From an uncultured Verrucomicrobiae bacterium (GTDB lineage Bacteria > Verrucomicrobiota > Verrucomicrobiia > Chthoniobacterales > UBA10450): a stretch of 64,000 bases of DNA. Below are positions 26,552 to 35,825 of the stretch, piece after piece. The first letter of the stretch is position 1. Each line of letters opens with the position of its first letter. The translations under genes were made by a program, and so were the position numbers. The notes beneath the pieces were generated by a model that worked only from the letters and a program-made list of their open reading frames with translations, did no database searches and was not told the DNA's origin. Location of the stretch: the NCBI GenBank assembly GCA_963726745.1, contig CAVSDR010000003.1:448001-512000 (forward strand). The letters are read 5' to 3'.

Positions 26552-26641
26552 GCCGGCAACTTCACCGGAGCGTCCACCCGAGCAGGATTGTGCGATGATG
26601 GCCCAAGTGAGAGAAAGCGCTGCCAAAATTCTGCCCGATCG

Positions 26642-27832
26642 ATGAAGACGCCTCGGCGGCCCGCGATTGTCCTGCTGGGAATGATCACGACCATGCCCGT
26701 GGGCGGCGTCATCTGGCAAACGTGGCATTACCTGGAAGGCCTGCGGCGTCTCGGCTTCGAGGTTTATTACGTGGAGGACCACGGGATGTGGCCGGCGATG
26801 TTTACCGACCAGGAAGATCCCTACGGCAGTGAACCGGCGGCGGCGTTCCTCAGGAAATTAATGGAGCGCTTCGGCCTGGCGGATCACTGGTCCTACTGCG
26901 CCTGGCATACCGATGAGCGCTGTTTCGGCCTCGACCGCGCGCAGCTCGCGCCGATCTATGCCGAGGCCGCGGCGGTGCTCAATCTTCACGGCGGCACCGT
27001 CGTGCGCCCGGAGCATCGCCGCGGTGGCGCGTTGCTTTACGTGGAGACGGATCCGGTCGCGACCGAGATCGAGCTGCACCGAGGAGTGAAGGCGACGGCT
27101 GATTTTCTCGACCAACACACAGCGCATTTCACCTTTGGCGAAAACCTCGGCGCGCCGGATTGCCGGGTCCCGCTGCCGCCGGCGAAGTACCGCTTTCACG
27201 CGACGCGCCAGCCGGTCGTCTGCGATTTTTGGGAAAGCGACGGCGGCCCGGCGGAGTGCTTCACCACGATCGCGAATTGGCGGCAGCCGGTGCGCGAAAC
27301 GACTTTAGACGGCGAGCTCTACACCTGGAGCAAGCACCATGAGTTCCTGAAATTTCTCGAGTTGCCTCGGAAAGTCGCGCAGCCCTTCGAGCTGGCCCTG
27401 AGCAGCTTCGAGCCGGCAGACCGCGAGATGTTGCAAGCACACGGCTGGCGGGTGCGACCGGCGCTGGAGTTCACCCGCGACCTCGAGGCTTATCGCGCCT
27501 ACATCCGGCAATCGCGCGGCGAATGGACCGTGGCCAAGGATCAAAACGTGCGCCTGCGCAGCGGCTGGTTTAGCGATCGCGCGGCGACGTATTTGGCCGC
27601 CGGGCGGCCGGTGATCACGCAGGAAACGGGCTTCAGCAATGTGCTGCCTACGGGCGAAGGACTGTTCGCCTTCCGCGAGCTCGGCGAGGTGATCGCGGCG
27701 GTGGAGACGATCAACGCCGATTACCCGCGCCACGCCCGCGCCGCGGCGGAGATCGCGCGGGAATTCTTCGGCGCGGAAGCGGTCCTGGCGAAGATGCTCG
27801 AGCAGGCCGGAGTGGAGATCCCCAGGCGATGA
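26642..27832 (+). CDS. putative GT-B glycosyltransferase-like protein
   Basis: GGVIWQTWHYLEGLRRLG N-terminus; SGWFSDRAATYLAAGRPVITQETG C-terminal nucleotide-sugar-binding-like motif. Confidence 0.7.
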   Translation: MKTPRRPAIVLLGMITTMPVGGVIWQTWHYLEGLRRLGFEVYYVEDHGMWPAMFTDQEDPYGSEPAAAFLRKLMERFGLADHWSYCAWHTDERCFGLDRAQLAPIYAEAAAVLNLHGGTVVRPEHRRGGALLYVETDPVATEIELHRGVKATADFLDQHTAHFTFGENLGAPDCRVPLPPAKYRFHATRQPVVCDFWESDGGPAECFTTIANWRQPVRETTLDGELYTWSKHHEFLKFLELPRKVAQPFELALSSFEPADREMLQAHGWRVRPALEFTRDLEAYRAYIRQSRGEWTVAKDQNVRLRSGWFSDRAATYLAAGRPVITQETGFSNVLPTGEGLFAFRELGEVIAAVETINADYPRHARAAAEIAREFFGAEAVLAKMLEQAGVEIPRR

Positions 27833-28539
27833 GCGCGGATCGCTTTGTCATCGTCAACGCGGATGACTTTGGCCTAACGAGCGGAATCAATCGCGGCATC
27901 ATCGAGGCGCATGAACGGGGCGTGGTCACCAGCGCAAGCTTGATGGTGCGCGCGCCCGCCGCTGGCGAGGCGGCAGACTACGCCCGCGCCCACCCGCGCT
28001 TCAGCCTCGGCTGGCATGTGGAACTCTCGGAATGGCGATGCCGCGCCGGCCACTGGGAGCTGGCCTACGCGATCGTCGACGTGGCCGATGCTGCGGCGGT
28101 TACCGCGGAGTGCGAGCGGCAACTCGAGCGCTTTCGGGAATTAGCCGGCAACCTGCCCACGCACATCGATTCGCACCAGCATGTGCATTTGCGCGAGCCG
28201 GTGCGCACGGTGCTGGCAGGCTTCGCGACGCGGCTGAAGGTGCCTTTGCGCGCCTGCAGTGAAAGTGTCGGCTACCGGGGCGGCTTCTATGGCCAAACCG
28301 GGGAGGGCGAGCCCCTGCCAGAGGGCATTTCGCCGGCGGCGTTTGCCGCTTTGCTGGAGGCGCTTCCGCCAGGCTGGACCGAGCTCGGGTGCCACCCGGG
28401 ATTTTCCGGGGAGGACTTGGATTCAGTCTATCGAAAGGAGCGCGACGAGGAAGTGCGCGCGCTCTGCAGCGACGAGGTGTGGAAAAGCATCGAGCGCAGC
28501 CGGGTGCAGCTGCGCTCGTTTGCTGATTTCAACCCGTAA
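27829..28539 (+). CDS. ChbG/HpnK (YdjC) family deacetylase
   Basis: VNADDFG, HIDSHQHVH and ELGCHPG motifs; ATGA overlap with the upstream gene. Confidence 0.9.
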   Translation: MSADRFVIVNADDFGLTSGINRGIIEAHERGVVTSASLMVRAPAAGEAADYARAHPRFSLGWHVELSEWRCRAGHWELAYAIVDVADAAAVTAECERQLERFRELAGNLPTHIDSHQHVHLREPVRTVLAGFATRLKVPLRACSESVGYRGGFYGQTGEGEPLPEGISPAAFAALLEALPPGWTELGCHPGFSGEDLDSVYRKERDEEVRALCSDEVWKSIERSRVQLRSFADFNP

Positions 28540-28589: not shown

Positions 28590-28730
28590 CTAATTCTGGA
28601 ATTTGATTCCGCCGCGGCTGGGGCCTTCGGTATTCCGGGCGCCGCCTTTGGCATCCTTGCGCGGTTTGAGGTCCGACACTTTGACCTGGGGCTTCTTTGA
28701 GGATTTGGATTTGGTGCTTTTCGTTGGCAT
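28590..28730 (-). CDS. double-glycine-leader precursor peptide C (46 aa; not in ORF track)
   Basis: Manual translation MPTKSTKSKSSKKPQVKVSDLKPRKDAKGG|ARNTEGPSRGGIKFQN; leader nearly matches the neighbouring peptide. Confidence 0.8.
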   Translation of the reverse strand: MPTKSTKSKSSKKPQVKVSDLKPRKDAKGGARNTEGPSRGGIKFQN

Positions 28731-28823
28731 CGCTGGTTGGGAAATGAAGTTTGGTTTGGTGGTGAATTCGATAGCCGCATCAAGGGGATCGGACCCACAA
28801 TGGGCGTATGCTGGCAGCTCTCG

Positions 28824-29033
28824 TTAGTCGAGGTTGCCGCTGTTGCTGGCGTTATTGCTCGCCGAGTTCTGGTCGAACCGGTTTTGCCCGGCGTTACGAC
28901 CGGCGGCGTTCTGGTCGAACGCACCCGACTGGTTGCGGGCTCCGCCCTTGGCGTCCTTTTCCGGGGTGAGGTCCTGGACCTTCACTTCGGGTTTCTTCTC
29001 GGTCGATTCGGCGTTGTCTTTGTTCTGAGCCAT
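28824..29033 (-). CDS. double-glycine-leader precursor peptide B (69 aa)
   Basis: ...KKPEVKVQDLTPEKDAKGG|ARNQSGAFDQNAAGRNAGQNRFDQNSASNNASNSGNLD. Confidence 0.85.
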   Translation of the reverse strand: MAQNKDNAESTEKKPEVKVQDLTPEKDAKGGARNQSGAFDQNAAGRNAGQNRFDQNSASNNASNSGNLD

Positions 29034-29037
29034 TTTC

Positions 29038-29223
29038 TTATTCCTTTGTTTTTTGGGTTGTTGATTGGGTGTCGGTTTCGCCGAAGAGCAACTGACGGCC
29101 GCCTTGGACGTTTTGTTTTGGAATCAAGTCATCCAGGCGGATCAATTGCACTTTCGGGTGTCCCTGCTGTTGATTTTTCTGATCTCCAGCGCGCGCACCT
29201 TTTTTGTCTTTTGATGCACTCAC
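29038..29223 (-). CDS. double-glycine-leader precursor peptide A (61 aa)
   Basis: ...PKVQLIRLDDLIPKQNVQGG|RQLLFGETDTQSTTQKTKE; same DLxP-x5-GG spacing. Confidence 0.72.
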   Translation of the reverse strand: MSASKDKKGARAGDQKNQQQGHPKVQLIRLDDLIPKQNVQGGRQLLFGETDTQSTTQKTKE

Positions 29224-29237
29224 CTGCCATTCCTCTT

Positions 29238-29253
29238 AACATGCGGCGTGCCA
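29238..29253 (-). promoter_or_regulatory. imperfect sigma54-like promoter for the precursor genes
   Basis: Minus strand TGGCACGCCGCATGTT: consensus -24 box, -12 reads GT instead of GC; lies just downstream of a sigma54 activator gene. Confidence 0.45.
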
Positions 29254-29360
29254 GCATTTCCGAAGGCGCCAAAACGCTGTCTAAAATCGGGGTGACACGG
29301 CTGCTTTCACCCTGGTTGCGAAGGGATTAGCGCGTCGGATTACAATCAGGAAAAGTTTGC

Positions 29361-30428
29361 CTAACGAATGGTAATTTGGCGCGGCCTGGCCTCATTTCGA
29401 CCGCGAGCGTGCTTCGAATTGCGACCAGCAGGCTCATCCTGCGCCATCTGCCGCAGATAGCGGGCTAAGGTGGAGCGTGAGATGCCCAAAAGCTTGGCCG
29501 CGAGGCGCTGGTTCTGCTCGCAGCTCGCATAGACAAACTGCACATGCTTCCGGAGGGCGGACGAAAGCTTCAAGTCGGGCCCCGGACCGTTCTCGGAGTT
29601 CGAGGGTTTGCGCTCGCCGGGCGGAGCCTCCGCCTGGTGCGCATGCGGAAGATCGGGCGAGAAGCTGACGTTATCCGGCAGGATGACTTCGCCATCGCAG
29701 AAGAGAACCATCGTGCGGACGGTGTGGTTCAGCTCGCGCAGGTTCCCGCGCCAGCCGTGCGCGAGCAGCCGAGCCATCGCTTCCGGGTGGATCGCGGTGA
29801 TCTCCTTTCCTTCGCGCGCAGCGGCCGCTTTCAATTCGCCGGCAATCAACGCCGGGAGCTCCTCCAGGCGTTCGCGCAGGGGCGGAATGAGCAACGTCAG
29901 TCCGTTCAGCCGATGAAACAGGTCCTCGCGAAATTTCCCCTGCGCTACGCGTTCCTGCAGCGAGCAATTAGCCGCGCAGATGATCCGCACATCGCAGTGC
30001 AACATCCGCTCGGAGCCGAGCCGCTCGAATTCGCCATACTCGAGCGCGCGCAGGATTTTCACCTGTGCGAGCGCGCTCATTTCCGAGATCTCGTCGAGAA
30101 ACAGCGTCCCTTCATGCGCGAGCTCGAATTTTCCCTTCACCGTCTGCTGCGCGCCGGTGAAAGCGCCGCGCTCGTGCCCAAAGAGCTGGCTCTCGAGCAG
30201 GGTGTCGCTCATTGCGGAGGCGTTAAAGGAAACGAAGGGCCCGCCGCCGCGCAGCGAGGAGTTGTGAATCGCATGCGCCAGGAGCGTTTTCCCGGTGCCG
30301 GTCTCGCCCAGCAAGACCACCGGCACGTCTGACTTGCAGGCGAGTGCGGCCAAACGCAGGCAGCGCGCCATGGCCTCATTCGTCGTCGTGATGTCTTCGA
30401 GCTTGAGGTCAGAGAGGACAGGCTGCAT
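29361..30428 (-). CDS. sigma54-dependent transcriptional activator (bEBP) without N-terminal sensory domain
   Basis: GETGTGKT Walker A at about residue 40, LFGHERGAFTGA, FLDEI, FREDLFHRLN, WRGNLREL, C-terminal HTH. Confidence 0.93.
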   Translation of the reverse strand: MQPVLSDLKLEDITTTNEAMARCLRLAALACKSDVPVVLLGETGTGKTLLAHAIHNSSLRGGGPFVSFNASAMSDTLLESQLFGHERGAFTGAQQTVKGKFELAHEGTLFLDEISEMSALAQVKILRALEYGEFERLGSERMLHCDVRIICAANCSLQERVAQGKFREDLFHRLNGLTLLIPPLRERLEELPALIAGELKAAAAREGKEITAIHPEAMARLLAHGWRGNLRELNHTVRTMVLFCDGEVILPDNVSFSPDLPHAHQAEAPPGERKPSNSENGPGPDLKLSSALRKHVQFVYASCEQNQRLAAKLLGISRSTLARYLRQMAQDEPAGRNSKHARGRNEARPRQITIR

Positions 30429-30446
30429 GCCGGGGGTTTCCTCCTC

Positions 30447-31625
30447 CTACTCGCGGGCGTTCTCCCGCAATTGCCGCACTGGCTCGAAGACGTATTCAAT
30501 CAATGTCCTGCGGCCCACGATGATCCGTGCCGCGCCCCGCATGCCGACGCGCAGGTTGAGCGCCTGCGTGCGGCCTTTCAGCTCCTCCACCGACGCGAGG
30601 GCGACAAAGCGCGGCCCCTCGGGTGTGGTGATAGCCGACGGGCTGATCCAATCGAGCGTGGCGTTAACCGTGCCGTAGCGCTGGTAAGGGAACGCCTCCA
30701 GAAAGAGCCGCGTTTTCTGTCCCGCCTTCAGCTTGGGCAAGCCAGTTTCCGAAAGCAGTAGACGCGCGCGCGGTTGCGCATCGAGCCGGGCGAGCTGGCA
30801 AAGCTCCTGGCCATTCTGAACCACGCTGCCGGCGCTTTTTTGCGCCACCGAAATCACGACCGCATCGTAGGGCGCACGCAGGGAAACGAGATTCTGCTGC
30901 GAGTTCTCCAGCTGCGCCTTCAAGGACCCGAGCCGATAGCCGAGCTTCTCGATCTCGGAAACGTCCTGCCCGCGCTGGCGCCCATGCTCCAGCTCCATCC
31001 GCTCGCGTTCCAGCTTCACCTGCTGGAGCGTCCGCTCGGCCACGCTCAAGTCTTTCTCGGAGGCCGCGAGGTCGAGGCGCAACCGTAAAAGTTCGACCTT
31101 CGAGATGCCGCCACTGCTGGAGAGTTTATCCATCCGTTCGACCAGCTCGCGATTGGCTGCGCTATGCCGCTCGCGAAACTTCACCTCGCTCTCGGCCTGC
31201 GCGATTTCCTGCTCCTTGATCTGCGCTTGCGCCTCGTAGGCCGAGTCGGATTTCTTCAAGCCGGCCTCGCGCTCGCGCAGGTCCTCGCTCAACGTCCGGA
31301 AACTCGTGTCGAGCGTGCGGATTTCCTCGGAGCGCAGGACAAAGAGTTCGCTGCCTTCCTTGACCGTGTCGCCCTCGCTCACGGCCACGCGATTCACCAC
31401 CGCCGCGTAGGGCGATTGCACCGGGTCCGCGCCATCGCGCGGCACGAGCACAAACGGACAGGTGACCGTCTCCGGCAGGTGCACAAAAATCGAGGCGACG
31501 AGCGCAATTCCGAAGAAGGCGATGATCAACCAGCCGGTGCTGCGCACAATCCACGGCGGCGGATCCTGCGGGAGCATTTCCGACTCGTTGTCGATCGAGG
31601 GGCGGGTGGCGAGGAGCGCGGCCAT
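30447..31625 (-). CDS. HlyD family membrane fusion protein
   Basis: N-terminal TM, coiled coil, LRAPYDAVV, AFPYQRYG, LRVGM and LIEYVFEP motifs. Confidence 0.92.
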   Translation of the reverse strand: MAALLATRPSIDNESEMLPQDPPPWIVRSTGWLIIAFFGIALVASIFVHLPETVTCPFVLVPRDGADPVQSPYAAVVNRVAVSEGDTVKEGSELFVLRSEEIRTLDTSFRTLSEDLREREAGLKKSDSAYEAQAQIKEQEIAQAESEVKFRERHSAANRELVERMDKLSSSGGISKVELLRLRLDLAASEKDLSVAERTLQQVKLERERMELEHGRQRGQDVSEIEKLGYRLGSLKAQLENSQQNLVSLRAPYDAVVISVAQKSAGSVVQNGQELCQLARLDAQPRARLLLSETGLPKLKAGQKTRLFLEAFPYQRYGTVNATLDWISPSAITTPEGPRFVALASVEELKGRTQALNLRVGMRGAARIIVGRRTLIEYVFEPVRQLRENARE

Positions 31626-31637
31626 GGAGTCGTTAGG

Positions 31638-34600
31638 CTAAATCCCCAGCTGCTGGCTGGAGAGGTAAAAATAGAGGCCGCGCTGCGCCATCAATTCGTC
31701 GTGGTTCCCCACTTCCGCGACCTTGCCCTTCTCGAGAACCACGATCGAGTCCGCCTCGCGAATCGTGCTCAAGCGATGCGCGATCACGATCGTCGTCCGG
31801 CCGGCCATCAGACGGCTCAAGTTATCCTGGATGGCGCGCTCGCTTTCAGTGTCGAGCGCGCTCGTCGCCTCGTCGAAAATCAGCACCGGCGGGTTGTTAT
31901 AGATCGCGCGCGCGATCGCGATGCGCTGCTTTTGGCCGCCGGAAAGCGAAAGGCCGCTCTCGCCGATCTTGGTCTCGTAGCCCATCGGCAGGCGCATGAT
32001 GAAATCGTGCGCCGCAGCCGTCTGCGCCGCGGTTAGGACGCGGTCCACATCCGGCTCCGCATCGCCGAAGGCGATGTTCTTCGCGATCGTCTCGTTAAAC
32101 ATGTGGTTCTCCTGCAGCACCATCCCGATATGCCGCCGGACGTCGCGGTAGTTGAGCGTCTTCAGGTCGGTGTGATCGAAGAAAATGCTGCCGGCCGTCG
32201 GCTCGAGCAGGCCGGCGATGAGCTTGATCAAGAGTCGTCTTCCCGCAGCCGCTGCGGCCGACGAAGGCAATCATTCGTCCCGGCGCGAACTGCAGGGTGA
32301 TGTCCTCGAGAATGTTCGGCGACTCCGGGCCGCCATATTTAAACGACACATTCTTGATTTCGATCCGCCCCTCCAGGCTGTGCACCGGCGCAAGGCGCGA
32401 ACGATCCCGCCCTTGCTCCGGCTCCTGCTCGAAGATGTCGTTCAACCGATTCAGCAACACCGAGGCGAGCTGCATGTTATCCCACACGCCGAGGGTGCGG
32501 AGAATGCCGCCATAAGCCATCGCCGTGAGCGAACTGAAGGCGACGAAGCCGCCGACGGTGAGGTTGCCGTTCATCACCTGGTTCGCGCCCACCCAGAGGA
32601 AAATCGCGGTCGAGAGCATGCCGATCGTCTGCAGCAGGCTGTCGTAGGACATGACGATGAAGTTGCTGCGAAAAATCTTTTTCGAGACCGCGAGGAACTC
32701 ATTCAACATCGCGTCGCGGAAGACCGTCTCCGCGGCGGCAGCTTTGACCGCCTCGATCCCCTTGATCGCGTCGATCTGGTGCGAGCTGTATTTGCCCTGC
32801 GCTTCTTCCACGCTGCCGAAGAGCGGGCGCAGCACCTTGAAGGAAAAATACATCAGGCCCACGTAGAGCGGCGTGGTCGCGAGAAACGCGAACATGAGCG
32901 ACGGGCTGTAGATCATCATCAGCGAGATCGCGCCGAAGAGCGAAACCAAAGCGAGGATCGCACCGATTCCTTGTCCCACGGCGAATTGCCGCACCTGGCT
33001 GGCGCCCGCGAGTCGGCGCTGGATGTCGCCCGTGCGCCGGCTGCTAAAATACGTCATCGGCAGCGAGAGAAGTTGCCGGCTAAGGAAATCGAGGATCGAG
33101 GTGTCGAGCCGCACGGCCGCGAAGGCGAGCAGATATTCCTGCGTGAGCGTCGAGGCCTGCACGAAGAACAAGGCCACGCCCATCCCGAGCAGGATCACCT
33201 TCAAAAGCCCCACGTCCCGCTCCACGATCACCTTGTCCACCACCATCTGGGTGAAGATGGGGAAGAGCATTTGCAGGAAGGTGACCGCGACCGCGAGCAG
33301 CATCACCTGCAGGAGCGTCTTCCGGTGTTTCGCCAAAAACGGGAGCACCCACGCGGCCGAGGCTTTCCCCTCCGGCGTCTTCTCGAACTCGATCGTGTAA
33401 TCGAAAAGCGCCGCGTAGCCCGACCAATTTTGCTCGAATTCCTTGCGCGGAATCTTGCGCAAGCCCGATGCCGGATCGGCCACGCGCACGAACTTTTCGT
33501 TCACGTCGTAGAGCACCATCCAGTGGTTCCCCTCCCAGTGGATCACCGCGGGCAGCGGCATGTTCGGGAGGTTACGCAGCGAGACCTTGAGCGCGCGCGC
33601 CGCCAGGCCCAGCTCATTGGCCGCGCGGCAAATTGCCTTCAAGCTCGTGCCATCGGTCGACGTGTGGCAGAGCTGCCGGATGCGCGTGAGGCTGACCTTG
33701 CGCCCAAAGTGCCGGCAAATCATCCCCAGGCTGGCCGCGCCGCAATCCATCTCATCGATCTGGCGCACATGCGGCACCTTGCGGATGCGGCCCTTCCGCT
33801 TGCGGAAGAATCCGCGCTCATCGGCGAAGGGATCGGTCGCAGTCGCCGCACTCGCGGCCGGTGGCTCGTCCACCGCCACCTTGTTGTGCATCTTCGCTTC
33901 CGCCGGCAGTTCCTCGATCGTGAAATCCAGCGGCAAACGCGCTTCCGTCTTCGCCTCGTATTGCGCCAGCCGCTCTTCCAGCAGGCGGCCGAAGTCCGGG
34001 AAATTGTGCTTCAGTTCCTGGACCGCGGCCGGCTCGAGCGCGAGCAGCCGGCAATCGGAATACGCTTCCACCGAGGCCGCGCGCGGCGAGCCGTTGAGAA
34101 TCGAGAGTTCGCCAAAGAAATCGCCGTCGCGGTAGAAGGCGAGGTTGCGCTCCTTCCCGTTATTCCCGGCAAAGGCACGCGCGCGGCCTTTCTCGAGGAT
34201 GAACATCGGCCCCGCGGCTTCCCCTTGGCGGATGATCAGGCTGCCCTTCGCCACTTCCAAGGGCGAGAGCTTCTCGATCAAGCTGCGCAAGGCTGGCGTC
34301 GGCAGGCGGCCGAAATTGCTGAACTCGTAGAGGAACCCCTGGAGCGAGCGGTGCCGCTTGATCAGCTCCACCTGCTCCTGCAGCTCGGGCACCCGCGCGC
34401 AGAGCGCGAGAAAATCGTCCCGTCCCAGACGCAACGCTTCCACCGCGGTGCTGCAGCGCACCGAGGCATTGCGCGTCCCGCCTTCGCCGAGCGCGGCTTC
34501 GCCGAAAACATCGCCCGGCCGCAAAGTAGCCAGCGCGATCTCGTTTCCGCTCTGGTCGGTCTTGATCGCGCGCGCCCGGCCGGACAGGAGGACGTAGAAC

Positions 34601-34749
34601 GCGTCTGCCGGATCGCCCTGGTGCACGATCACATCGCCAAATTCGTAATGCTCCTCCTGGAGGAGTGGGCGGATTTCATCGAGAAATTCCAACGGCAGAA
34701 ACCGGAAGAGCGAGGTCCGTTGGAGGACTTCTTCGTCCTGCGCTCTCAT
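31638..34749 (-). CDS. peptidase C39-containing ABC exporter (PCAT) with two N-terminal cNMP-binding domains; frameshift near 32232
   Basis: FGEAAL..RNASV and FFGELSIL..PRAASV cNMP cassettes; QIDEMDCGAASL and HWEGNHW C39 motifs; TMD; GRSGCGKTT; LSGGQKQR, FDEATSALD and IAHRL in the second frame. Confidence 0.92.
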
Positions 34750-35825
34750 GCGGCGGAGACCGTGGGCAAGAGGCGCCATTGCACCTGGTTCGCCGTCAGG
34801 TCGGCAAAGTGTCGCTCGAGCAGGCGCTGCTCGATCCGCGCCCGCACCGGCGGATCCGAGGCCTGTGGCTCGTGTTTCCCGAGCAGCCGGCAAAGGACAA
34901 AACCATCCGCCCGCGGCGTCGGCTCCAGCAAGCTCCCCGGCGTCAGGCTCAGGAACCGTTGCTGCAGGTCCGGCGCGATCTGCTCCAGCGTCATCCCGGT
35001 TTGGCGAAAGGGATACCGCCCTTCCCGCGCCACTTCCTCCATGCTCATCCCGTCGTCGCGCACGCAAAAGAGCGCCTCGCTCGCCGCGTCTTTCGATTCC
35101 AGTTCGATCATCTCCACCTCGAAACGCGTCATCGGCAGGCGCACCGCGCCGAGCTCGCGCTCGATCGCCTCCGGCCGGAGCAGCTGCGCACACCGCGCGC
35201 GGTAAGCCGCTTCCAGCGCCATCATTTCCTCCAGCCAGGCGCGGTCGCGCCCGAGCGCGGCCAGCCAATCCTCGACCGCATCTTCGCTTAACTCATGGCG
35301 CGCGAGAAATTGCTCCTGCTGCTCGGCCCGCTCCGCATCATTTGCTTCGCCTGGCGCCGCCACCCGCCAGGCCAGCGCCAGCGCCATTCGCTCCAGCTCG
35401 CCGGTTAAAACCAGGTGCGCCACCAGCAGCTCCCGCTCATCCGCGTTCGCCTCCGCGTAGGGCCGGCTCTCGGCCGCCATCTTGCCGGCTAAATTTCGCT
35501 GCCAATAATTCCGCGCGAAGAAATTGCTGAAGTCCCCCAGGTCGAGCGCCCGCTCTTCCAGCCAGCGCTCCGTTTCCTCCGCGGTGATTAATTCGTGGCG
35601 ATAACGGAATTCCACCGCCGCCTGGTCGATCGCTCCCGCTTCCGGCTCCGCGCCGCTCGCCTCCGCCTTCCGCTCCGCCGCGCGCGCCGCCTGCAGCGCC
35701 TGCCACGGCCCGGTTAATTCCCCGCGAAAGTGCGCCGCATCGATCACGTCTGCCGCGGTGTATTCCCGCGAGGCACAGGCAAAGAGAATCCGCTGTCCCT
35801 TAGCGGCTGGCGCTGTGCTTGTCAT
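34746..35825 (-). CDS. SurA/PpiC-related chaperone-like protein
   Basis: Two FR/FL...L...E.WL...G/L helical units plus a degenerate rotamase-like C-terminus; ATGA overlap with the ABC gene. Confidence 0.6.
   Translation of the reverse strand: MTSTAPAAKGQRILFACASREYTAADVIDAAHFRGELTGPWQALQAARAAERKAEASGAEPEAGAIDQAAVEFRYRHELITAEETERWLEERALDLGDFSNFFARNYWQRNLAGKMAAESRPYAEANADERELLVAHLVLTGELERMALALAWRVAAPGEANDAERAEQQEQFLARHELSEDAVEDWLAALGRDRAWLEEMMALEAAYRARCAQLLRPEAIERELGAVRLPMTRFEVEMIELESKDAASEALFCVRDDGMSMEEVAREGRYPFRQTGMTLEQIAPDLQQRFLSLTPGSLLEPTPRADGFVLCRLLGKHEPQASDPPVRARIEQRLLERHFADLTANQVQWRLLPTVSAA

Follow-up and report, generated by a model that had tools for sequence, protein, structure and literature searches.

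A candidate peptide switch for a sensor-less sigma54 activator in a GG-leader export cassette of Verrucomicrobiota

A 64,000-nucleotide stretch of DNA from an uncultured Verrucomicrobiae bacterium of the order Chthoniobacterales (here, the window) was analyzed for a peptide secretion cassette that occupies positions 28590..35825 on the minus strand; the assembly that holds the window comprises 3.4 Mb in 7 contigs. The cassette is real and conserved. It encodes an exporter with a fused C39 protease, an activator of sigma54-dependent transcription that has no sensor domain, and three small peptides with double-glycine (GG) leaders. Of these peptides, PepC is likely a regulator of the activator, and PepA and PepB are likely cargo. 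We propose, with confidence a little above even, that intact PepC clamps the activator and blocks its use of ATP, as the LuxO linker does in cis, and that the exporter protease is the switch. The gene order, the protease triad, the sigma54 motif, the two peptide classes, the co-occurrence of pepC with the activator, and the decay of transport functions in Lentisphaeria were all read directly from sequence comparisons. The features, with the evidence used for each, are as follows.

28590..28730, minus strand: PepA, 46 amino acids (aa), a cargo-class leader and a 16-aa cationic core (leader profile)
28824..29033, minus strand: PepB, 69 aa, a cargo-class leader and a 38-aa N/S/G/Q-rich core (leader profile)
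29038..29223, minus strand: PepC, 61 aa from a GTG start, with a possible inner start (TTG) at 29145 (alignments)
29236..29254, minus strand: sigma54 -24/-12 promoter motif with a non-C base at -12 (top match of a genome scan)
29361..30428, minus strand: sensor-less sigma54 enhancer-binding activator, 355 aa, with AAA+ domain from residue 14, GAFTGA motif, and C-terminal helix-turn-helix (HTH) (Pfam, structure model)
29387..29405, minus strand: putative upstream activator site, an imperfect palindrome 151 nucleotides (nt) before the promoter and inside the activator's last codons (motif picked by eye)
30447..31625, minus strand: HlyD-family membrane fusion protein, 392 aa (PF13437)
31638..34749, minus strand: peptidase-containing ATP-binding cassette (ABC) transporter (PCAT) with two cyclic nucleoside monophosphate-binding (cNMP) domains, a C39 domain (Cys-His-Asp intact), and membrane and ATPase domains (Pfam, motif alignment of relatives)
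34746..35825, minus strand: SurA/PrsA-fold protein, 359 aa (AlphaFold2 and Foldseek)
28491..28518, minus strand: terminator-like hairpin of 12 pairs after pepA, a weak call at chance level (3 such sites in the region against a shuffled mean of 2.2)

Two peptide classes in a conserved cassette

An earlier note on this DNA, made from the letters alone, had described seven open reading frames (ORFs) on the minus strand, and all seven are present. The stop codon of the SurA-like gene overlaps the exporter ATG (34749-34746) in the ATGA coupling that the note reported, and the three leader and core sequences that it quoted are correct. Pfam returned two cNMP domains in the exporter, in agreement with the note, and the C39 Cys (QIDEMDCG) and His (NHW) motifs are intact, as is the Asp motif (ADP); with this triad, a membrane domain, and an ATPase domain, the exporter is a PCAT, frame-split in this assembly. 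The proposed check by leader profile was made with a 14-residue profile built without the window's own peptides, which recovered PepB (E value of 3.6e-7) and PepA (1.9e-6) in the genome; a PepC profile recovered PepC at 1.5e-15. Codon-position entropy was coding-like for both leader classes, and a contig from another public run spans 28622-28886 with 4 differences. No family in Pfam, NCBIfam, or the protein atlas matched the window's three peptides, and the view that the system exports peptides whose GG leaders form an undescribed family held up. One weak match of a window peptide to DUF6254 (E value of 0.053) was dismissed. No PepC relative was found among 15 pattern matches in viral contigs, and a metagenome scan with four distant PepC rows gave a single match, which was rejected as lying inside a long unrelated ORF.

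The three peptides had been taken for a single kind of cargo; the evidence instead splits a conserved PepC from hypervariable PepA/B-type peptides. In the PepA/B-type leader, D-11, L-10, K-6, D-5, and the GG are fixed in 73/73 sequences. The cores behind it abound in G, S, A, N, R, Q, T, and H and contain almost no Cys (0.0-0.2%), which bears out the earlier doubt about membrane-active bacteriocins; most carry a positive net charge. Their median length is 32 aa (best 150 library matches), and among the 197 cores that reach 20 aa, 45 are periodic, where shuffling gave a mean of 0.7. The cargo leader profile matches 738 clusters at 50% identity. PepC, the product of the first gene after an intergenic gap, has the conserved motif I-x-L-x-D-L-x-P-x3-V-x-G-G-x(2-7)-F-G, in which the aligned leader and FG are invariant and the spacer from GG to FG ranges from 2 to 7 residues. 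The claim of divergent cores, true of PepA and PepB, thus fails for PepC, whose GG-x(2-7)-FG is conserved across genomes. Among PepC relatives, the pair at the presumed cleavage site is limited to GG, GA, and GS, the set accepted by C39 proteases as described in PMC6363468. PepC is matched by 1805 proteins at E values of ≤1, and the named proteins among the best 120 are all from Verrucomicrobiota.

Named homologues of the SurA-like gene, the first of the cassette, belong to Chthoniobacterales or Verrucomicrobiota. In a survey of 151 genomes of the host family and 301 genomes across the phylum, this gene was present in 95/151 (∼60%) and 5/301, respectively; the cassette was not found in about a third of the family genomes. 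(The family tallies given here and those for co-occurrence below include three genomes flagged as unpublished, G007, G136, and G150.) From 94 relatives with a SurA-like match, 57 loci were taken, long contigs being favored. The order SurA-like protein, exporter, HlyD, activator is kept in 55 of these, and the other two are cut by contig ends. Where enough downstream DNA was available (53 loci), pepC is intact in 46 and at least one cargo peptide is present in 49. Flanking genes vary: in a clustering that left out ORFs under 70 aa, no family within ∼2.5 kb upstream and 5 kb downstream occurred in more than 15/58 loci, so that, as far as these flanks reach, the cassette includes no gene for immunity, a receptor, or tailoring.

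The AlphaFold2 model of the SurA-like protein (predicted local distance difference test [pLDDT] score of 94.5) best matched PrsA and SurA in Foldseek (E value of 1.8e-6, template-modeling score of only 0.35), and Foldseek is the sole source of the fold assignment. There was no Pfam match, and the protein falls outside TIGR04500 (peptide maturation), scoring 27.8 bits (E value of 1.5e-6) against a cut-off of 180. At the first parvulin His position, placed by eye from the parvulin motif, Glu is found in 71/71 proteins, and His is kept at the second in only 17/71; an active prolyl isomerase was rejected on these positions. What the earlier note called a SurA/PpiC-like protein accordingly keeps the SurA/PrsA fold, as a predicted structure, and loses the parvulin site. 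Because the parvulin histidines are lacking and the N-terminus, read by eye, has no hydrophobic or signal-like stretch, this protein is likely a cytoplasmic, noncatalytic chaperone. The HlyD protein scores 151 bits against TIGR01843, below the cut-off of 208.65. Elsewhere, the genome carries TolC-family genes unlinked to the locus and class III cyclase domains; a second C39 match was set aside as a stand-alone protein unrelated to export.

Several further observations concern the peptides and their surroundings. The unit of promoter, pepC, and cargo is tandemly duplicated at L062, L063, L067, L082, and L083, where the first pepC is sometimes degenerate. Cargo arrays at L164:7965-10193 (Chthoniobacteraceae) and L167:10420-12959 (Opitutaceae) have cores that resemble fragments of surface proteins. 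One core exceeds the cut-off of the H-X9-DG pilin-associated model, one weakly matches an immunoglobulin (Ig)-like domain (E value of 0.005), and others resemble pilin-helix, tube-protein, and autotransporter-repeat motifs; such cores may act as decoys or modulate assembly. Between tRNA-Ile and tRNA-Ala, at G000:C6:178783-178953 (minus strand), there is a fourth GG peptide, which combines a leader of the cargo type with a Pro-rich core that is conserved. It has matches (E values of ≤1.2e-5) in 9 of the 30 other genomes of the genus (one, G466, flagged as unpublished), several of them again beside tRNA-Ile/tRNA-Ala, and a pattern search found no sigma54 motif upstream of it. On the plus strand of the window (26588-28539), a glycosyltransferase-like gene and a YdjC deacetylase gene run toward the peptide genes. 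This pair also lies beside the cassette at 5 more loci of the genus, and a link to matrix polysaccharide is possible.

The activator, its promoter, and the predicted PepC complex

The earlier note gave the activator no role and omitted the sigma54 promoter, the upstream palindrome, and a frameshift in the exporter. The protein has an AAA+ domain with GAFTGA and an HTH and has no regulatory domain, the cassette has a sigma54 promoter motif, and the genome encodes rpoN together with five other full sigma54 activators; the protein is thus a sensor-less sigma54 activator. A quick tree placed it within one distinct clade (28 rows; support of 100 in the Shimodaira-Hasegawa-like approximate likelihood ratio test), inside which the forms with HlyD and cargo make up a single branch (support of 99). 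The Gly that is usual in the linker, present in 13/17 other activators, is T or S in 70/70 members of this clade, which also lacks the usual aromatic residues of the lid. The activator gene is the last in the operon, in a conserved order.

A -24/-12 motif precedes pepC in 57/60 cassettes (shuffle rate of 2.3%), ∼31 nt ahead of the GTG. At -12, C occurs in just 3/57 of these, but Opitutaceae and most Lentisphaeria copies have the canonical base; TGCT is seen at several other candidate sigma54 sites of the genome, unlike the non-C -12 of 54/57 cassettes. The motif accompanies pepC where the peptides sit away from the exporter (G025, G001, and G037), and in genome G116 the activator, promoter, and pepC are all damaged and pepB is intact. 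The palindrome was found with at most 4 mismatches in 27/57 cassettes, ∼95 to 205 nt upstream, against 8/1140 shuffles; the motif had been selected from the data in which it was counted, and the copy in the window has 5 mismatches. When the genome was scanned with both profiles, promoter and palindrome, no second target was convincing (next score of 21.5 versus 27.9). Since transcription is predicted to start ∼4 nt ahead of the pepC GTG and 48/49 pepC genes keep an inner NTG codon, at leader position -16, a shorter PepC, still holding most of both predicted binding patches (described below), may be made from the inner start.

To model the complex, activator residues 1-335 were combined with PepC, and 3 controls were run. 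The complex score was 0.63, compared with 0.00 for the best control; the runs had at least 87% of contacts in common, and partner pLDDT was at least 56. The mark applied to this score was reached by 116/157 solved pairs and 2/215 mismatched pairs, rates that are only rough for our own alignments. PepC residues 25-35 are predicted to lie on the activator lid (190-218), and residues 42-52 are predicted to contact activator residues 12-15, 20, 46, and 49-50, beside Walker A, at a site that we take, from known activator structures, to be the adenine pocket. The GG (41-42) is between the two patches, and the invariant PepC residues I28, L30, D31, L33, P35, F47, and G48 are all in the predicted interface. 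PepC is thus predicted to bind the activator, and by analogy with the LuxO linker and with PspF/PspA this binding would be inhibitory.

The distribution of the two genes was next compared across genomes. In the host family (151 genomes), pepC and the activator occur together in 84, pepC alone in 2, the activator alone in 6, and neither in 59. In the class Lentisphaeria (121 genomes, those appearing in two overlapping surveys being counted once), the corresponding numbers are 11, 1, 5, and 104. Related genomes are not independent in these counts.

Lentisphaeria also provide forms in which transport functions have decayed. At six loci, the SurA-like gene, exporter, and activator form a direct run with no HlyD or peptide alongside, and no close HlyD orthologue was found in these six genomes (best matches, 21 to 26% identical). 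The C39 Cys/His/Asp triad is intact in 7/7 exporters of this type; all 7 have an altered ABC signature, 3 lack Walker A, and 5 lack the H-switch. By comparison, all motifs are kept in the 6/6 HlyD-linked exporters examined. Two exporter relatives, L250:6330-8441 and L251:6751-8889, consist of C39 and a membrane domain with no recognizable ATPase or cNMP domain and are candidates for a membrane-anchored regulatory protease.

In the Lentisphaeria genomes pepC sits elsewhere, with a sigma54 motif upstream of 8/12 copies. What follows pepC differs between lineages: cargo peptides in Chthoniobacterales, in Opitutaceae, and in one other Verrucomicrobium, and, in 10 genomes of the Lentisphaeria class, large genes whose products have a pilin-like N-terminus (by eye), three with Ig/cadherin repeats and Gly-Ser-rich tails and one with Calx-beta. 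These large proteins are likely surface adhesins. Two proteins of genome G396 (L135:6276-14120 and L136:7804-10155) combine a pilin-like N-terminus and Ig/cadherin repeats with long Gly-Ser(-Asn) repeat tails, which recall the cargo cores of Chthoniobacterales.

The proposed switch and its alternatives

In the mechanism that we propose, intact PepC would hold the sensor-less activator off, much as PspA, FleN, and NifL act on their activators in trans (PMC12998190). The exporter C39 protease, when active, would cut PepC at the GG and so split the clamp; the protease would be gated by a nucleotide bound to the cNMP domains, and the SurA-fold protein would present PepC to it. The released activator would fire the pepC promoter, and new PepC from the same promoter would provide negative feedback. 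The output in Chthoniobacterales would be PepA/B-type cargo, exported via HlyD and an unlinked TolC, and competition of cargo and PepC for the same protease would match cargo synthesis to export capacity. In distant relatives, the cutting of PepC would switch on the likely surface adhesins. The wider reading, that Verrucomicrobiota share a circuit in which a nucleotide-gated, exporter-fused C39 protease cuts a two-patch anti-activator, as a membrane-anchored, adhesin-controlling protease left by decay of the transporter in Lentisphaeria and as a coupling of hundreds of repeat peptides to export in Chthoniobacterales, is one to which we give slightly less than even confidence. For the cargo itself, a role as surface or matrix material is the first guess because of the EbfG precedent (see below) and the adhesin output in Lentisphaeria, although we hold it tentatively, at just under an even chance. 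A signal or kin label is somewhat unlikely, and an antimicrobial and a decoy or assembly mimic are, each to the same degree, more unlikely than that.

Several results weigh against this mechanism. Direct support for binding consists of one complex prediction with modest partner confidence. Because IRLDDL in PepC resembles LKLEDI in the activator itself, the complex model may reuse an intramolecular motif; in the model of the activator by itself, the LKLEDI segment is not a strand on the lid edge. The controls do not speak to specificity for PepC over PepA/B, and the interface residues are not enriched for clade-specific conservation (6/33 versus 31/222; P = 0.34). Both leader classes have hydrophobic residues at -4, -10, and -13 and Pro at -8, whereas the LahT substrate leader, as described in PMC6363468, has hydrophobic helix positions at -4/-7/-12 before GG. 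Of that LahT/ComA pattern, only -4 and the GG are matched here, and cleavage of PepC is only assumed because of this difference in spacing. A Shine-Dalgarno-like AGGA falls upstream of the predicted transcription start, if that start is right, which bears on the amount of PepC made from the sigma54 transcript. The strict link between pepC and the activator is weakened by G318, G438, and G494, which keep the activator with no neighboring exporter and no convincing pepC found (one weak match, E value of 0.096, without the FG); by G485 and G503, in which no pepC was found; and by G219, which has pepC without an orthologous activator or exporter. Finally, gating by a nucleotide is not universal, since the cNMP domains are missing from two of the seven Lentisphaeria-type exporters.

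The activator might instead be constitutive, with PepC being the conserved first cargo (a nucleator, an anchor, or a pheromone for an unlinked receptor) of a plain export cascade. The conserved order with the activator last in the operon, a GG leader in PepC like that of the cargo, and the periodicity of the cores (45/197 versus 0.7) fit such a cascade, as does the EbfG precedent, in which GG peptides exported by PteB build biofilm matrix (as described in PMC4997328 and PMC9981879). We nevertheless consider it unlikely, for it leaves unexplained the predicted two-patch interface and the persistence of PepC in G396, in which the search for cargo peptides gave none, and in forms that have lost HlyD and the ATPase motifs; the examined flanks hold no conserved receptor gene. 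The predicted interface is also compatible with a co-activator role, in which PepC would supply the FG missing from the activator's linker and cleavage would turn the regulon off, and a partner might complement the linker Gly and lid aromatics that the clade lacks. Against this idea, the trans partners of sensor-less activators described in PMC12998190 are inhibitors, and occlusion of the LuxO kind (PMC4878744) would account for an aromatic residue and a Gly placed at the nucleotide pocket. Having the cargo genes off while the exporter is active would also be poor logic for the Chthoniobacterales form, and we judge a co-activator distinctly improbable.

Also considered was a cluster for a microcin, a bacteriocin, or a ribosomally synthesized and posttranslationally modified peptide (RiPP), the mature products of which would kill competitors or be modified by enzymes from other loci. 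PCAT, HlyD, and GG leaders together are the class II microcin layout, and the cores are hypervariable and mostly positively charged. TIGR04500-family proteins, moreover, are found in graspetide loci (as reported in PMC8939145). The SurA-like protein misses the TIGR04500 cut-off, however, the cores are polar with 0.0-0.2% Cys, and the window peptides match no bacteriocin family in Pfam or NCBIfam. Because the examined flanks hold no conserved tailoring enzyme beside the precursors and no conserved immunity gene, both readings were lowered, to the point of being highly improbable, and the RiPP reading of the earlier note was not supported, a conserved receptor gene being absent from these flanks as well, although tailoring enzymes could act in trans.

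A separate question is whether the locus works in this strain, since the exporter ORF shifts frame by one base at ∼32230, just behind Walker A. The frameshift is present in the assembled sequence, and a third or so of the family genomes gave no cassette, as might be expected of a true pseudogene in a decaying locus. We think this very unlikely, and it would be independent of the system's role in relatives. Every other part of the locus is intact. The exporter is in frame at the site in 54/55 relatives, three contigs from other runs (from other strains) lack one base at 32224-32233, and 15 of the 56 genes matched with relatives in this assembly are frame-split; because of these three observations, the frameshift is probably an assembly error. 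A TolC-family gene at G000:C6:607275-608502 also appears split over two frames, in line with the assembly error rate.

Relation to known systems

Class II microcins and colicin V are exported by a PCAT, HlyD, and an unlinked TolC and have a GG leader. The cassette described here differs from these systems in having no conserved adjacent immunity gene, in cores that are not hydrophobic, and in the addition of cNMP domains, a chaperone, and an activator.

The closest resemblance is in parts of the export machinery. Like the cyanobacterial group I/II clusters (Wang, Fewer, and Sivonen 2011, PMC3140520, as far as described there), the cassette combines a long C39 exporter that has an N-terminal nucleotide-binding domain with HlyD, a SurA-like gene, and GG peptides, and its exporter, HlyD, and SurA-like gene match theirs as a trio. 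None of the group I/II precursor families (NHLP, N11P, HetP, DUF37) was matched by the three peptides in Pfam or NCBIfam, although the HetP motif KIXDLXYLEX10GG, as given for those clusters, starts like the cargo leader here. HetC of Nostoc PCC 7120 affects transcription, binds guanosine tetraphosphate (ppGpp), and has no adjacent membrane fusion protein, and its substrate is not known, according to the account in PMC10986499. Compared with the cyanobacterial clusters, only the present cassette has a linked sigma54 activator, a promoter, and a conserved PepC, as well as a shorter DLxP-x5-GG leader, polar repeat cores, and forms with a decayed ATPase. In Synechococcus elongatus, the PteB substrates EbfG1-4 include one member on the cell surface (PMC4997328 and PMC9981879, as above).

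Control of a sigma54 activator in trans by a partner protein has been described for PspF/PspA, FleQ/FleN, and NifA/NifL (in PMC12998190) and for HrpRS/HrpV (in PMC3105312); in the former account PspF, too, has no sensor domain and is held off in trans. The LuxO linker, in the description of PMC4878744, is like PepC a short segment, with a key Gly deep in the ATP site; it touches both lobes and can inhibit in trans in vitro. That segment acts in cis and is freed by phosphorylation, whereas PepC is a separate gene product that would be freed by cleavage. Compared with the PspF/PspA type, the partner here is a peptide of 45 to 65 aa with a protease site between its two predicted patches, and its release would be by proteolysis.

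Export-coupled control of transcription by a small secretion substrate is known from FlgM/FliA. In the ExsE-ExsC-ExsD-ExsA system, as outlined in PMC10418997, a small secretion substrate likewise controls transcription, and expression follows export. Both belong to type III secretion, act on AraC or sigma28 targets, and involve no cleavage; the present system, with a type I/PCAT exporter and a sigma54 AAA+ target, and with export that seems dispensable in one lineage, is a member of neither.

A literature search, mostly without subscription papers or supplements, found no report of this cassette or of a sigma54 activator whose regulator is cleaved by a C39 protease. The export machinery varies a known kind, and the likely peptide-gated sigma54 switch is undescribed within the literature searched. 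Chthoniobacterales are abundant in soil and largely uncultured, and the 738 cargo-leader clusters represent a large untouched set of secreted peptides. All parts of the switch are small and could be rebuilt in E. coli with a reporter. If the proposal is true, proteolytic release of a peptide clamp would be a new control of sigma54 activators. It would also be the first secretion-coupled checkpoint found, in the literature searched, for a type I/PCAT exporter. PepC would be the first substrate with a regulatory role for a transporter of the HetC type, and the cassette would make it testable what cNMP-bearing transporters such as HetC cut and why they change transcription.

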